Of a stretch of DNA of 64,000 nucleotides, positions 1,325-5,690 are shown piece by piece. Source of the DNA: an uncultured Clostridia bacterium (GTDB lineage Bacteria > Bacillota > Clostridia > Christensenellales > CAG-917). The notes beneath the pieces are model-generated. The model was not told the DNA's origin, did not search any database, and saw nothing but the letters and a program-made list of their open reading frames with translations. Position 1 is the first letter of the stretch. Each line of letters opens with the position of its first letter. The position numbers and the translations under genes were made by a program. Location: positions 11,107 through 75,106 of the forward strand of contig CANQNC010000004.1 in assembly GCA_947625145.1 (NCBI GenBank). The letters run 5' to 3'.

Positions 1325-2576
1325 CGGATATGAGCACCTCCGCCTCGACAGTCACGCTTACGTTCCTGCCCACGGCGTCCCTCTGTACGGATCTGTACAC
1401 ATTTTTTATGCTCGCGGGTTCCTCGAGCTCGGAGAGTATCTCGGCATAGACGATGGAGCACAGCTGTTCGTCCGTCATGACGTTTTGCGTCTCTACGGCG
1501 TCTAGCTGCCGAAATTCGTACGTGTACGCGACAAACGGAAGCAAAAAGCCGAAATCGCTTATCCTGACCTCAAGTTCGTAGGTTTCAAACGGGCTTTTGG
1601 GAGGCTTCGGCGCCTTGCCGAACATCCCCAGCTTCACGATACGCTTCGTCTTGCCGTAGACCTTTTCCACCGAGACGTCCGCTAAGTAGGCGGTGCGCTT
1701 CAACAGCACGGTGCCGTAAACGCTTCCCTTCGCCTCCACCTCTATGCGCGAATCGCCGTACATGACGTAGCCGTCTATCAGCAGATCCCCCGCCTTCACG
1801 ACGTCGCCGTACTTGACCTGCGCCGTGCCGCCCTCCACAATCACTCGCGTGACTGTGGCAAGCCTTGTCGCGCTCACGCCCGAGCCGCGTATGTCGGCGA
1901 AATGCTCGCGCGCAAGCTCGGACTTTATCCTGACCTCCACTCGCGTGCCCCGCCTTTGGACCTGCGCAAAGGCTATCCCGTCCAGCCCCAATATCCTTTC
2001 GGACAGGACATCGGGCTTTATCTCGGGGACGAACGCGCCCTCGAACACCCCTTGCTCGGATAGTATTGCGTGTATCTTTGCATTTAATGCGCCGTCCGCC
2101 TCCACGCCGTCAAGGCTTAGGACGCTTATGTCCGTCACGAAGCAAGGGAACAGCGCGATCATCAACACGCCTGCCGCGATGCCCGCGATCAACCCCGCGC
2201 GCACGAGCAAGCGCGCAAGGCGCGGGAGCGCGCCCGACACTCGTATTATTTTATAATCATAGCATAAATTGTCGAGCAGCGCAACAATCTTTGGGCAAAC
2301 TTTTGACGGAATATAAAAACGGATCCCGTCCGAAGCCGTCCTCACGTCGCTGACAACGCAGATCTTCATGATCGCGCCAAGCGCCCGCACTCCGTTTTTG
2401 CCCTTGACAAAGATCTCGGTCTTGCCCAGCTTGCTCGCAAAAACAGACATTCTATTCGGACGTTTTTTGCGGATAGGCGAGATTTTGTCCTTCCTCTCCT
2501 TCTGCGGCTTTTTGACCCTGCGCTCGACTGTGAAAGCGCCAAAATCGTTTTCAGTCCTTTTTTTGCCCGTCAACAA
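1296..2576 (-). CDS. yqfD: sporulation protein YqfD
   Basis: 426-aa ORF with a TTG start 7 nt after AAGGAGA (alternative ATG at 2450). It has a central TM segment LIAGIAAGVLMIALFPCFV and a YqfD-like N-terminal region (GKTEIFVKGKNGVRALGAIMK). The yqfC-yqfD-phoH order matches Bacillus/Clostridium. Confidence 0.8.
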   Translation of the reverse strand: MLTGKKRTENDFGAFTVERRVKKPQKERKDKISPIRKKRPNRMSVFASKLGKTEIFVKGKNGVRALGAIMKICVVSDVRTASDGIRFYIPSKVCPKIVALLDNLCYDYKIIRVSGALPRLARLLVRAGLIAGIAAGVLMIALFPCFVTDISVLSLDGVEADGALNAKIHAILSEQGVFEGAFVPEIKPDVLSERILGLDGIAFAQVQRRGTRVEVRIKSELAREHFADIRGSGVSATRLATVTRVIVEGGTAQVKYGDVVKAGDLLIDGYVMYGDSRIEVEAKGSVYGTVLLKRTAYLADVSVEKVYGKTKRIVKLGMFGKAPKPPKSPFETYELEVRISDFGFLLPFVAYTYEFRQLDAVETQNVMTDEQLCSIVYAEILSELEEPASIKNVYRSVQRDAVGRNVSVTVEAEVLISDENNKGKTF

Positions 2577-2820
2577 ATTCCAATCTCCTTATATCGCCCT
2601 TGACATAGATGTCCGAGCCGCCGATCTCAAGTATCCGTAGCCCCTCGCCCGCAACGCTCAGCGCGCCGCCCGCGATCTTCAACCTGACCTCCTCCCCCGT
2701 GGACAACATCACGTTTTTGACGCCGCTGACGGCAAGTTTGTCCCGCGCAAGCATGGTCAGCGCAAACGGCAACAGCTCCTGCCCCACCTTCAACTTCCTT
2801 TTCAATTCGTCCTTGAACAT
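2551..2820 (-). CDS. yqfC: YabP/YqfC-family sporulation protein
   Basis: YabP-type core LAVSGVKNVMLSTGEEVRLKIAGGALSVAGEGLRILEIGGSDIYVKGDIRRLEF. The start is uncertain: ATG 2820 has no clear RBS and the ORF is open up to TTG 2907. Confidence 0.65.
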   Translation of the reverse strand: MFKDELKRKLKVGQELLPFALTMLARDKLAVSGVKNVMLSTGEEVRLKIAGGALSVAGEGLRILEIGGSDIYVKGDIRRLEFVDGQKKD

Positions 2821-2951
2821 GTTAAAGCATATGAGCCCGCTCCCCCAATCATTCCCCGCCCGCTCTCCACCAAAATGCGTCTGCCCTCCCCTAAATCCCT
2901 CCCGCAATCAAGGGAAAAATCCACAGGAGAAATACTCAAATCACCTTAGGG

Positions 2952-2989
2952 ACAAAAAAAATTCCAACCTATCAGTTCAAGATAGGTTG
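2952..2989 (-). terminator. intrinsic terminator (minus-strand reading)
   Basis: 9-bp stem CAACCTATC (2965-2973) pairs with GATAGGTTG (2981-2989). On the minus strand it is followed by a run of 8 T (plus-strand A8 at 2953-2960). Confidence 0.6.
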
Positions 2990-3020
2990 AAATCGGTGTC
3001 AAACACGAAAGATGCCCGAG

Positions 3021-3268
3021 AAGGTTCGTAGGCAAGGTCAGCGGCCTGCCGATCGGGTCCCACAAAATTGTGAAATGATTTTGTGGGTGAAATTGCGAAA
3101 CGAGCGAGTTTACTCGCAAAAGTGGAGCGTCAGTCCGGGAACAGGAGTTCGCCACGCAAAGCGTGGGCAACATATAATGTTGCAATCTTGACGGGACAAT
3201 CTCTCGTGTCTTACGCGAGAGATGACCATGAAAAAAGCACCTAAACAGGTGCTTTTTTCATGGTGTCT
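3021..3268 (+). ncRNA. unclassified structured RNA-like element, copy 1 (strand assignment tentative)
   Basis: Shares ordered conserved blocks with copy 2, with compensatory hairpins between them. It ends in a 16-bp hairpin CCATGAAAAAAGCACC/GGTGCTTTTTTCATGG (3226-3263). Three G.U pairs exist only on the + strand. No family was recognised. Confidence 0.35.
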
Positions 3269-3301
3269 TACACGAAATAGCTGTAAAGCCCGCAATCCAC
3301 A

Positions 3302-3527
3302 GTCGGAGATTCGTAGGCAAGGCCAGCGGCCTGCCGTAATAGTGGAGCGTGAGTGCTTGCACTCGGTAGCGACACGTCAGTCCGGACGTCCGGAGTTCGG
3401 TTGGCAAAGCCAACTATTGTTGCATTCTGCAACAATAAAATCTCCGACGGGACAATCTCTCGTGTGCCTTACACGAGAGATGACCATGAAAAAAAGCACC
3501 TGTTTAGGTGCCTTTTTTCATGGTGTC
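3302..3527 (+). ncRNA. unclassified structured RNA-like element, copy 2 (strand assignment tentative)
   Basis: Closing helix GTCGGAGAT (3302-3310) pairs with ATCTCCGAC (3440-3448). It has the same block order as copy 1. Its terminal 17-bp hairpin (3484-3523) includes the CCA end of tRNA-Lys. Confidence 0.35.
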
Positions 3528-3596
3528 CCGTCGGAGATTCGAACTCCGGACCATCGCATTAAAAGTGCGGTGCTCTACCGACTGAGCTAACGAGAC
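3521..3596 (-). tRNA. tRNA-Lys (anticodon UUU)
   Basis: Reverse complement is GTCTCGTTAGCTCAGTCGGTAGAGCACCGCACTTTTAATGCG...GGAGTTCGAATCTCCGACGGGACACCA. It folds as a cloverleaf with anticodon loop CTTTTAA and an encoded CCA. Confidence 0.9.
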
Positions 3597-3598
3597 GG

Positions 3599-3673
3599 TG
3601 GCAGGGGTAGCTGGATTTGAACCAACGAATGACGGAATCAAAATCCGTTGCCTTACCGCTTGGCGATACCCCT
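3599..3673 (-). tRNA. tRNA-Gln (anticodon UUG)
   Basis: Reverse complement is AGGGGTATCGCCAAGCGGTAAGGCAACGGATTTTGATTCCG...GGTTCAAATCCAGCTACCCCTGCCA. The anticodon is TTG and CCA is encoded. Confidence 0.9.
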
Positions 3674-3756
3674 TCGAGGCGCATTTGCGCAACGTTGCGT
3701 ACGCTCTTGCGAGACATACTTTGTATGACCGCGACCAATGATCGCAAGGTTTCAAA

Positions 3757-3834
3757 TGGGGTGAATAGTGGGACTCGAACCCACGGCCTCCAGGGCCACA
3801 ACCTGGCACGCTAACCAACTGCGCTATATCCACC
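3757..3834 (-). tRNA. tRNA-His (anticodon GUG)
   Basis: Reverse complement is GGTGGATATAGCGCAGTTGGTTAGCGTGCCAGGTTGTGGCCCTGG...GGGTTCGAGTCCCACTATTCACCCCA. An extra 5' G(-1) sits opposite discriminator C, which is typical of tRNA-His. Confidence 0.9.
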
Positions 3835-3837
3835 ATA

Positions 3838-3914
3838 TGGCGAGCCTGAAGGGATTCGAACCCCCGACACACGGCTTAGAAGGCCGTTGCTCTATCCTGC
3901 TGAGCTACAGACTC
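3838..3914 (-). tRNA. tRNA-Arg (anticodon UCU)
   Basis: Reverse complement is GAGTCTGTAGCTCAGCAGGATAGAGCAACGGCCTTCTAAGCCG...GGGTTCGAATCCCTTCAGGCTCGCCA. The anticodon is TCT. Confidence 0.9.
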
Positions 3915-3942
3915 ACTGTTGTCGAGCGAAACCTATCTAGGT

Positions 3943-4016
3943 TGGAGCGGGTGATGGGAATCGGACCCACGCAATCAGCTTGGAAGGCTGACATTCTACC
4001 ATTGAACTACACCCGC
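3943..4016 (-). tRNA. tRNA-Gly (anticodon UCC)
   Basis: Reverse complement is GCGGGTGTAGTTCAATGGTAGAATGTCAGCCTTCCAAGCTG...GGGTCCGATTCCCATCACCCGCTCCA. The anticodon is TCC. Confidence 0.9.
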
Positions 4017-4068
4017 GCGCTCGCTCGACCTGCCGGCGACGAAAGTCAATACCATTCGGCGCTTGAAA

Positions 4069-4097
4069 ATATTAACATATTAAGCAAATCATGTCAA
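4069..4097 (-). promoter_or_regulatory. sigma-A-type promoter of the tRNA operon
   Basis: On the minus strand: TTGACA (4097-4092), 17-nt spacer, TAATAT (4074-4069). It lies about 50 nt upstream of tRNA-Gly. Confidence 0.6.
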
Positions 4098-4217
4098 GAA
4101 ATTTTGACAACTTTGCTCAATTAGCCCGACGACTTTGCTTGCGCCCCGCTTTTGCGAGTTTATGGCGCCGTCGCGCACGAGGCTTTAAGCGTCACGACTC
4201 CGAAAACTCTCCAAGAC

Positions 4218-5690
4218 TCACTCGCCCGCCGAACGATCGAGAAGCTGTTGTTTGAGCGTCCAGAGCTTTTTGGACAAGTCCACCTTGTAGTCCTGCGCAT
4301 TGACCACTCTGCGATATTCGGGGAAGAATTGCGCAACGCATTGATCCTCGTACTCCGCTATCTGTTTGAGCGTGGGCAGGTCGTAGACCAACTTGCCGTC
4401 CTTGAAGATGGGCGTCATAAGCTCTTTCGTCTCAAAATCCACAAACGTCATCCTCTTGTAGGTCAGCTCGGGATGGAAGATGGTGAGCGGCTTGGAGGGG
4501 TCTATCGTCTCGTCCTCGAGGCATATCAGGTCCGCCTGCGCCATGCCGCGCTTGAAAATGCGCACGATCTTTTTTACCCCGGGATTGGTGGTCTTTTCGT
4601 GGCTGTTGGACACCTTTATCTTGGGCACGAGCACGCCGTTCTCTTCCATGGCGCACATCTTGTACACGCCGCCGAGAGAGGCGTTTTTGTAGCTTGTGAT
4701 CAGCTTTGTGCCTATGCCGTAGACGTCTATCTTCGCCTCCTGCGCGTGCAGGGACAGCAGAATGTCCTCGTCAAGGTCGTTTGTGGCGAAGATGAGGCAA
4801 TCGTCGTGCCCCGCGGCGTCAAGCATTTTCCTTGCCTCGCGACTGAGATAGGCGAGGTCTCCGCTGTCCAGCCTTATGCCGATGGGCTTATGTCCCGCCG
4901 CCTTGAGCTTGTCAAACACCTTTATTGCGTTTGGAACGCCGCTTTTCAGCGTGTTGTAGGTGTCCACCAGCAGCAGACAGTTGTCGGGATATATCTCGGC
5001 GTACTTTTCAAACGCTTCAAGCTCGCTGTCAAAGGACATGACCCAGCTGTGCGAGTGCGTGCCCGTGACGGGTATGCCGAACAGCTTGCCCGCAACCACG
5101 TTGGACGTCGTGCGACAGCCGCCGATATAAGCCGCCCTTGCGCCGTAAATTCCCGCGTCCGCGCCCTGCGCCCTGCGCAAGCCGAATTCGCTGATCTTGT
5201 TTTTTGTGCACTCTCTGAGCCTTGCCGCCTTTGTCGCGATCAGCGTCTGATGGTTGATGAATGTCAAAAGCGCGGTCTCCACAAGTTGAGCCTCCCAAAG
5301 CGGCGCCGAGACCGTGACGATTGGCTCGCCGGGGAAGATCATGGTCCCTTCGGGCACTGCCTTGATGTCCCCCGTGAAGCGGAAGCCCTCGAGAGCGCGG
5401 AAAAATTCCTCATCGAAGATGCCGAGAGACCTCAGATATTCTATGTCGCTCTTGTCGAAATGCAGGTTCAAAATGTAGTCTATCGCCTGCTCCAGCCCCG
5501 CGGCGATCGCGTAGCTGTAACCGCCCGCGCCCCTGTAAAACACGTCGAAAACCGCTCTTTTTTTCCACAGCCCGCACTTGAGATAGCCGTTCATCATGGT
5601 CAGCTGATAAAGGTCGGTCAAAAGGGTGAGATTGTTTGTTTTGACGCGCTCGGTCAGATAGGTGTTTTGCGCAATATCCTTGTTTTCCAT
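4218..5690 (-). CDS. pncB: nicotinate phosphoribosyltransferase
   Basis: 490-aa ORF with the NAPRTase N-terminal signature LLTDLYQLTMMNGY and a full-length family layout. Confidence 0.9.
   Translation of the reverse strand: MENKDIAQNTYLTERVKTNNLTLLTDLYQLTMMNGYLKCGLWKKRAVFDVFYRGAGGYSYAIAAGLEQAIDYILNLHFDKSDIEYLRSLGIFDEEFFRALEGFRFTGDIKAVPEGTMIFPGEPIVTVSAPLWEAQLVETALLTFINHQTLIATKAARLRECTKNKISEFGLRRAQGADAGIYGARAAYIGGCRTTSNVVAGKLFGIPVTGTHSHSWVMSFDSELEAFEKYAEIYPDNCLLLVDTYNTLKSGVPNAIKVFDKLKAAGHKPIGIRLDSGDLAYLSREARKMLDAAGHDDCLIFATNDLDEDILLSLHAQEAKIDVYGIGTKLITSYKNASLGGVYKMCAMEENGVLVPKIKVSNSHEKTTNPGVKKIVRIFKRGMAQADLICLEDETIDPSKPLTIFHPELTYKRMTFVDFETKELMTPIFKDGKLVYDLPTLKQIAEYEDQCVAQFFPEYRRVVNAQDYKVDLSKKLWTLKQQLLDRSAGE

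Follow-up and report, generated by a model that had tools for sequence, protein, structure and literature searches.

In Escherichia coli, the small tRNA-linked repeats (TLRs) lie directly behind tRNA genes; they have been known since 1978, when the 178-bp repeats of the tyrT-tyrV locus were reportedly described by Egan and Landy, and they still lack an accepted function or origin. Twenty-two TLRs were counted at ten E. coli loci, each ending in 18–19 bp of the 3′ end of the upstream tRNA or rRNA, and their function is unknown save for three rRNA-linked small RNAs (Stenum et al., 2021; PMC8144298). Here, we analyzed a stretch of 64,000 nucleotides from an uncultured Clostridia bacterium (Christensenellales; CAG-917; assembly GCA_947625145.1, contig CANQNC010000004.1, positions 11,107–75,106, forward strand), hereafter the window, in which two tandem units lie behind the tRNA-Lys(UUU) gene, the body of each containing an inverted, split copy of the T-arm of this tRNA. 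We found that the split mimic is no local oddity but a built-in part of a widespread family of units, and that these represent an uncatalogued family of small gene-less folded elements located behind tRNA and tmRNA (transfer-messenger RNA) genes of one group of gut Clostridia. The Clostridial family offers what E. coli lacks, namely hundreds of diverged copies, at least 16 tRNA types plus tmRNA and a covarying fold; its target-matched segments can be read like natural mutagenesis, and it makes testable the question whether such units are mobile DNA, processed RNA, or both.

The tRNA-Lys(UUU) gene, recognized by ARAGORN and Rfam at 3521–3596 on the minus strand, is the last gene of a Gly-Arg-His-Gln-Lys operon (3521–4016, minus strand) with a near-consensus promoter at 4097–4069 (minus strand). 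Positions 3388–3399 and 3440–3454 of the plus strand reproduce, in sense orientation and without a mismatch, the T-arm and the acceptor 3′ strand of this tRNA. The 15-mer ATCTCCGACGGGACA has two sites only, 3440–3454 (plus) and 3524–3538 (minus) in tRNA-Lys, and none is expected in shuffled sequence even with one mismatch tolerated. The 12-mer GTCCGGAGTTCG likewise has two sites only, 3388–3399 (plus) and 3540–3551 (minus) in tRNA-Lys; taken alone it is within chance, as two matches arose in 7 of 100 shuffles when one mismatch was permitted. The matches claimed in an earlier note on this DNA were thus exact and unique to these sites and the tRNA gene. The 40-nt interruption that it had placed in the T-loop, with two hairpins, can be read directly in the sequence at 3400–3439, between TTCG and AAT, as hairpin P4 (3400–3414, GTTGGCAAAGCCAAC), hairpin P5 (3415–3437) and AA. 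We also confirmed the alternative pairing that had been proposed for GTCGGAGAT (3302–3310), which is the exact complement of ATCTCCGAC (3440–3448); such alternative pairings exist and are conserved. The burial of the tRNA-Lys CCA in a terminator stem holds as well, its complement TGG (3521–3523) lying within the stem at 3484–3523. The earlier note had further argued that the inverted orientation speaks against duplication of an integrase attachment (att) site. The inverted copy is real, but a direct repeat of the tRNA 3′ end also borders every unit: the GTCGGAGAT singled out before is part of it, and since 3302–3313 (GTCGGAGATTCG) repeats 3530–3541 within the tRNA-Lys gene, an att-like direct duplication is present beside the inverted copy. 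The mimic of the gene-proximal unit of the window (unit 2) is the fullest that we found (27/27 nt), the acceptor part being short or degenerate in most units.

For the distribution of the family we relied on BLAST and on a covariance model (R1) built from 23 units. BLAST detected more arrays in the 1.54-Mb source genome, at contig ends beside tRNA-Tyr and tRNA-Leu(gag), and R1 gave 12 matches there at a looser cut-off; the units of this genome adjoin tRNA-Lys, Tyr, Leu(gag), Arg(cct), Thr(cgt), Leu(caa), Trp, and tmRNA. Within the same bacterial family, 73 of 108 genomes contain R1 matches (1–21 per genome, around 490 in total), including 46 of the 51 genomes of the same genus and 12/12 of another, and the matches cover at least 16 tRNA types plus tmRNA and at least 10 genera. 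The rest of the order yielded one weak match in 146 genomes outside the family. Public records with true matches are metagenome-assembled genomes of uncultured Christensenella sp., Clostridia or Clostridiales, and the metagenome matches are long chromosomal contigs, beside tRNA-Glu or tRNA-Lys. Rfam, run over 2000–5000 at E ≤ 1, returned the five tRNAs and sub-threshold chance matches, and nothing for the units.

The placement of the units is highly regular. They adjoin the 3′ side of the last tRNA of an operon, or of tmRNA, antisense to that gene, in arrays of 1–4 units per locus, the core measuring about 135 nt and the complete unit 170–260 nt including the terminator. For 50 of the 75 distinct R1 matches, the 900 nt downstream include a tRNA or tmRNA gene on the opposite strand; two have a same-strand neighbor, 17 reach a contig end and six are without a tRNA or tmRNA gene; hence, 50 of the 52 distinct units with such a neighbor are convergent with it and located within 900 nt of its 3′ end. 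The tmRNA unit of the source genome (G000:C23:15869–16008) carries a mimic of the tmRNA T-arm and the direct repeat TGGTGGAAGTGCGGGGAATCG. Orphan units, in which the terminator is not followed by a tRNA gene, were also seen (G000:C33:4940–5048; L033). The source assembly breaks at arrays (contig ends C24/C27, C30/C39, and C19), with C24 joining C27 at tRNA-Tyr and C30 joining C39 at tRNA-Leu(gag).

The co-variation of the mimic with the local tRNA, which the earlier note had proposed to look for in relatives, was measured by a position-specific comparison, local alignment being uninformative due to the shared T-loop. The 4-mer of the T-stem 5′ strand matches the neighboring tRNA perfectly in 32 of 35 units, vs. 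10.6% against other tRNA types, and the 9-mer formed by the T-stem 3′ strand and the acceptor matches at eight or more of nine positions in 10 of 35 units, vs. 0.2%. The body of each unit comprises the inverted copy of the neighbor's T-arm, split by two hairpins between G57 and A58, as well as hairpin P3, built of the T-stem 5′ strand and its complement; these segments vary with tRNA type, and the co-variation of the internal mimic spans at least 16 tRNA types. Examples of unit segments include CGAGTTCG...AACCTCGGTAGG at Glu, GGGGTTCG...AATCCCCT at Ala, AGGGTTCG...AAGTCCCTGA at Lys(ctt) and TGAGTTCA...TCGTCATCCGCACCA at Leu(cag). Differences between species in one and the same tRNA are followed as well: for Arg(ccg), units with TTCA...AAT accompany a tRNA with TTCAAAT and units with TTCG...AACT a tRNA with TTCGACT, while for Lys(ttt) the unit CGACGGGAC is found with tRNA ACGGGAC and CGGTGG with GGTGGGTC. 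An origin of the mimic by template-switch extension of the terminator palindrome was considered and rejected, as the acceptor end, which is proximal to the terminator, is the least conserved part and the T-stem the best.

The order of parts is TAGG, P1, GTAATAG, P2 with a tandem G.A, CGTCAG, P3, GTTCG, P4, and P5, followed by AATC, the T-stem 3′ strand, the acceptor strand, a small extra hairpin and the terminator. In unit 2, which is matched by R1 over 3310–3452 with 120.5 bits, the conserved first part of the core (3314–3380, plus strand) comprises TAGG, P1 (3316–3335), the invariant GTAATAG (3336–3342), the long hairpin P2 with its tandem G.A (3342–3375) and the invariant CGTCAG (3375–3380), and is supported by covariation. 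It is followed on the same strand by P3 and GTTCG (3381–3399), P3 having the form TCCGGA-CG-TCCGGA, that is, the T-stem 5′ strand and its complement, and representing a helix (helix 4) that covaries with tRNA type. P4 and P5 (helices 5 and 6, which also covary) split the T-loop copy, and the sense copy at 3440–3454 contributes the T-loop end, the T-stem 3′ strand and the acceptor 3′ strand, which pair with 3524–3538 in the predicted fold. Unit 2 ends in a small nested hairpin, ATCTCTCGTGTG-CCTT-ACACGAGAGAT (3455–3481, plus strand), recognized in the sequence and the predicted fold, and in the bidirectional terminator hairpin (3484–3523), supported by a plus-strand terminator call and by the predicted folds.

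Altogether, the core fold consists of six covarying helices. In the seed alignment 90.7% of the cells are paired, vs. at most 50% with slid partners; in an alignment of the 75 distinct copies fitted to the R1 model the value is 94% vs. at most 56%, with 393 double-change cells and 21 of 22 pairs compensated. G.U/G.T pairs exceed A.C by 38:14 (15:5 in the MAFFT seed), and therefore the folded strand is the one antisense to the tRNA. GTAG, CGTAATAG and CGTCAG are invariant single-stranded motifs, and the conserved T-loop residues (G53 T54 T55 C56 R57 ... A58) are all retained. Some Glu- and Lys-type units contain an optional structured domain of about 190 nt inside the invariant CGTC/AG (the slash marking the insertion point; L021, around 1740–1930; L023; L025), of which two versions have diverged while keeping their hairpins. 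On the tRNA-sense strand the invariant GTAATAG (3336–3342 in the window, present in all units) reads CTATTAC (CACTATTAC in unit 2), which resembles the NANTATTAC nick site of HUH Rep proteins; the genome is without a Y1 HUH gene, other Rep families not having been searched.

The transcript-based consequences of the mimic are thermodynamic predictions only. On the unit strand, P1–P5 are predicted to form and the 3′ half of the mimic to pair with the repeat inside the tRNA gene (z = −10), whereas the tRNA-sense read-through fold is predicted to pair the tRNA 3′ half with the downstream complement, at the loss of the cloverleaf (z = −12). The read-through complement put forward in the earlier note thus survives as a long predicted duplex, but a strong terminator lies between the tRNA and the complement. 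Similarly, the T-arm mimic that a plus-strand transcript was supposed to display is real as a sequence, yet no sigma-70 promoter was found that would produce such a transcript: sigma-70-type promoters are absent before the units on the folded strand in the window and in two further loci (L017 and L021), and in the window neighborhood the tRNA operon promoter is the only one. TAGGCA together with TAATAG was rejected as an internal promoter because its spacer (P1) is a covarying hairpin whose length ranges from 11 to 19 nt.

The units of relatives lie between direct repeats of about 21 nt that correspond to the antisense tRNA 3′ end, from CCA to C56, e.g., TGGTGACCCACCGGAGATTCG/TAGG on the left and ...GATTCG/AACTCCGG, continuing into the tRNA, on the right. 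The window retains a repeat of 12 nt (3302–3313) plus a split-off stretch of 7 nt, so that the spacer between its two units (3261–3313, plus strand) reads TGGTGTC (3261–3267), a 34-nt insert and GTCGGAGATTCG; the same interruption is present in L012 and L013. The repeat breaks at a constant point of the T-loop (YG/AA on the unit strand) at Lys, Glu, Tyr, Leu(cag/tag/caa/gag), Ser, Arg(ccg/cct), Trp, Thr, and tmRNA. Read in the tRNA sense, a unit consists of a terminator, the six-helix body and a repeat of the last ~21 nt of the tRNA (C56 to CCA), and every unit has its own terminator, called chiefly in this direction. The unit loci are clearly dynamic. The tRNA-Lys site contains one to three copies depending on the species, adjacent copies being sometimes identical, and integrase-bearing islands and C-terminal pseudogene pieces of integrases occupy the same sites as units.

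The pieces beside units derive from tyrosine integrases (L014, L022/L039) and in L014 such a piece is fused to the 5′ end of the unit. Within the same bacterial family, full-length relatives of these integrases (L041–L047, L046, L048, L054, L060) abut tRNA-Lys(ttt), Ser(tga), Glu(ctc), Ser(gct), and Ser(gga); the integrases found at unit sites look like a clade with diversified tRNA targets. In the only island examined, that of G069, neither end carries unit-like sequence, and the idea that units are a mini-version of the islands sharing their sites was rejected on this ground. Two sets of near-identical metagenome contigs (L275, L279, L280, and L282 vs. L277 and L281) are distinguished by an island that includes an AAA_14/DUF4143 ATPase gene and sits immediately behind TGGTGA, between a Glu-type unit and tRNA-Glu; the extreme 3′ end of the tRNA is thus a second integration sublocation. 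An exact-protein look-up for contigs of near strains returned no record.

The E. coli TLRs (tyrT/rtT) are the nearest published counterpart of these units. In the tyrT-tyrV locus of strain MG1655, each 178-bp unit comprises GGGGAAGGAT, the complement of the T-stem 3′ strand and acceptor, then the sense AAGGTTCGA, an insert of about 68 nt and AATCCTTCCCCCACCACCA; by this layout, the E. coli T-arm copy is also split in the T-loop, in sense orientation. Units of both kinds are non-coding, lie directly behind tRNA (in E. coli also rRNA) genes, singly or several in tandem (one to five per locus in E. coli), end in the last 18–21 nt of the upstream gene, and combine the T-stem 3′/acceptor complement with a T-arm copy interrupted in the T-loop. 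The Clostridial units thus share the features by which TLRs are defined, i.e., their position and the repeated 3′ end of the gene. They differ in that, with respect to the tRNA, the T-arm copy is inverted and the fold resides on the antisense strand, in that each unit has its own intrinsic terminator, and in that one family with a conserved six-helix core serves at least 16 tRNA types and tmRNA. No homology to RtT (RF00391) or the E. coli TLRs was detected, Rfam giving nothing at E ≤ 1 and R1 at most 1.2 bits on the tyrT locus.

Two further groups of known systems share part of the design. Elements whose tyrosine integrases target the T-loop of tRNA and tmRNA genes, together with their arrays, integrase-less derivatives resembling cis-mobilizable elements (CIME-like), and tycheposon remnants, likewise leave a direct repeat from a T-loop point to the 3′ end, regenerate the gene and accumulate as arrays at the gene-proximal site, and the units share sites with integrase islands. 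In contrast to such elements, units have a core of only ~135 nt, encode no integrase (the three PF00589 genes of the genome are located elsewhere), possess a conserved single-strand secondary structure and an inverted target replica, and the sole integrase island examined is without unit-like ends. Integron attC sites and the CTX-phi attP(+) site recognized by XerCD are enzyme-less DNA of which one strand folds through imperfect inverted repeats into the target duplex, form tandem arrays and regenerate the target; the units may follow the same scheme: in the predicted unit-strand fold the mimic 3′ half lies on the repeat and P3 would rebuild the T-stem, and the pairing bias is 38:14. Here, however, the target is the tRNA T-arm, and any single-stranded stage of the units is purely hypothetical. 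Neither GTTRRRY/RYYYAAC (R/L) boxes nor dif-like XerCD arms were found in the unit alignment, the junction YG/AA lying within TTCGAA.

We tentatively propose that the units are gene-less insertion modules aimed at the T-loop, the folded strand of which rebuilds the target site, and assign this reading a probability of roughly 0.4. A non-autonomous module would insert between T-loop positions 55 and 56 of a tRNA or tmRNA gene, supplying a replacement 3′ end and a terminator and leaving the gene intact, while the old 3′ end would be displaced outward and become the direct repeat. In the folded strand, P3, TTCG...AAT and a duplex between the direct repeat and the 3′ half of the mimic would rebuild both half-sites of the target T-arm, so that the inverted split copy would be the element's replica of its own target, serving site choice or strand exchange. 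The recombinase would be one that the unit itself does not encode, and arrays could lengthen through successive insertions at the gene-proximal site or through unequal exchange between repeats. Insertion into the T-loop appears the most economical origin because of the fixed repeat break, the replacement 3′ end with its terminator, the arrays varying between species and the integrase islands at the same sites, and that the folded strand carries both strands of both half-sites suggests that the mimic is a target replica.

Several observations weigh against insertion modules of this kind. Among the loci compared, we found no clean pair of a filled and an empty site, and since cores at different tRNAs within one genome are only 58–73% identical, recent hopping from one tRNA type to another is not indicated. 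Around 16 of 20 R1 matches in the two single-contig relatives G017 and G099 have the folded strand as leading-strand template (a rough assignment, with the terminus taken as opposite dnaA), and this is not the strand usually exposed as single-stranded DNA. In the 98% complete genome, no match was obtained to the PF00078/RVT_1 reverse transcriptase, to the IS110 DEDD recombinase (PF01548) or, at E ≤ 0.1, to the Y1 HUH transposase (PF01797), and none of its two large serine and three tyrosine recombinases adjoins an array, the latter (PF00589) being one Xer-like, one phage-type and one located beside tRNA-Arg(acg). BLAST matches to units were absent from phage records, and all 62 of 62 pattern matches in IMG/VR failed the R1 model. 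It also stays unexplained how one element family would have acquired three matched segments for each of at least 12 targets.

Specific mobile-element candidates were set aside on the same data. A retron or other reverse transcriptase-based origin lacks an RVT_1 gene, and an IS110 bridge-RNA element a DEDD recombinase gene. A REP/RAYT or IS200/605 element, brought up by IS200/605-like cues (GTAG with a hairpin at the unit start and CTATTAC on the other strand), lacks a Y1 transposase gene and would have the wrong strand-to-replication orientation. Phage or plasmid carriers were rejected given the negative phage BLAST and IMG/VR results and the chromosomal nature of the metagenome matches. A bolder form of the insertion-module proposal, which we regard as doubtful, is that the units are retargetable, i.e., that their entry is set by base pairing of the split T-arm replica with the tRNA gene. 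Both half-sites would then be recognized in a DNA- or RNA-guided manner, a host or still unrecognized recombinase would supply catalysis, and exchange of the mimic segments would redirect insertion to another tRNA. If it is true that the matched segments set the insertion site, the units would be a very small, enzyme-less and reprogrammable targeting module, and this would account for tRNA 3′ ends being rearrangement and assembly break points in these genomes.

The units could instead act as RNA, on either strand, and we consider each version unlikely. On the tRNA-sense strand, terminator read-through from the operon promoter, the sole promoter nearby, may yield a trailer RNA like E. coli rtT and other TLRs; these are transcribed and processed, and their last 18–19 nt are those of the tRNA 3′ end (PMC8144298). 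The 5′ segment of such a trailer (T-stem 3′ and acceptor complement) could pair with its 3′ end (the last 21 nt with CCA) into a tRNA-like minihelix, a possible substrate of RNase P, 3′ exonucleases or the CCA enzyme; alternatively, a read-through precursor that escaped processing may have its 3′ half captured by the complement and be marked for RNase III. The E. coli tyrT unit, with its T3′/acceptor complement and T-loop-split T-arm copy, and the predicted joining of the tRNA 3′ half to the downstream complement (z = −12) agree with a trailer, but the wobble pairs favor the opposite strand (38:14), a strong intrinsic terminator precedes each unit in the tRNA-sense direction and homology to RtT is missing in both search directions. 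The strand bias fits better with a gene for a small structured RNA, read antisense to the tRNA operon up to the bidirectional terminator that both share, in which the split T-arm would be a tRNA-specific mimic or sensor, e.g., a decoy for a factor binding the T-arm or the acceptor, or a switch that lets the T-stem 5′ strand pair with P3 or, instead, with the downstream 3′ strand. The location of the fold on the antisense strand, its six covarying helices and invariant single-stranded motifs, the retention of all conserved T-loop residues, the T-run that follows the terminator on the antisense strand in the window and an optional domain at a fixed insertion point, as in structured RNAs, would all suit such a gene. 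Yet, no sigma-70-type promoter precedes the units in the three loci inspected, all that precedes a unit within an array is the terminator of the previous one and the direct repeat, a generic T-arm decoy has no need to match the stem of its neighbor, and the flanking direct repeats are left unaccounted for.

Another reading is that the units are functionless, inert scars, left by repeated integration and excision of larger integrase islands at a T-loop att site (CIME-like). Islands and pseudogene pieces do occupy the same sites, the unit in L014 is fused at its 5′ end to an integrase fragment, and outer copies such as unit 1 of the window decay. We nevertheless consider scars very improbable: over at least 16 tRNA types and 10 genera, hundreds of compensatory changes have preserved the fold, the mimic follows the tRNA, and the G069 island has no unit-like sequence at either end.

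As for the remainder of the window locus, positions 3029–3263 and 3314–3523 form the two tandem, diverged units, which share 78% identity over aligned columns. The older and diverged unit 1 (plus strand), identified by an R1 match at 3025–3197 (95.6 bits) and by its alignment with unit 2, begins with TAGG, P1, an extra hairpin, P2, CGTCAG, and CAGGAGTTCG (3142–3151), and continues with P4 (3152–3166), P5 (3167–3183), AATCTTGACGGGACA (3184–3198), a small hairpin (3199–3223) and the terminator (3226–3263). Its left border (2995–3028, plus strand) is a decayed and interrupted direct repeat of the antisense tRNA-Lys 3′ end (GGTGTC ... CCCGAGAAGGTTCG), vs. the intact 21-nt repeats of relatives; both the outer repeat and unit 1 are decayed. 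Further out, at 2960–2994, lies the outermost terminator hairpin (CCAACCTATCAGTTCAAGATAGGTTG), called as a minus-strand terminator. The same hairpin is positioned directly behind tRNA-Lys in L010, L011, and L013, while here it is outside both units, which bear a different terminator. The neighboring genes have housekeeping or sporulation functions (phoH, yqfD, yabP, NAPRTase, and lgt), and the few mechanically derived open reading frames that overlap the units (61–122 aa, both strands) run across covarying hairpins and terminators.

Behind the mimic, both units contain another, smaller hairpin element, ATCTCTCGTGTG...CACGAGAGAT (3455–3481 and 3199–3223). Remnants of it occur at 3001–3014 and 3268–3301, and also in L012 and L013, where they interrupt the direct repeats between TGGTGTC and CCGTCGGAGATTCG. 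This small hairpin resembles a nested mini-insertion, with the acceptor end of tRNA-Lys copies as its target.

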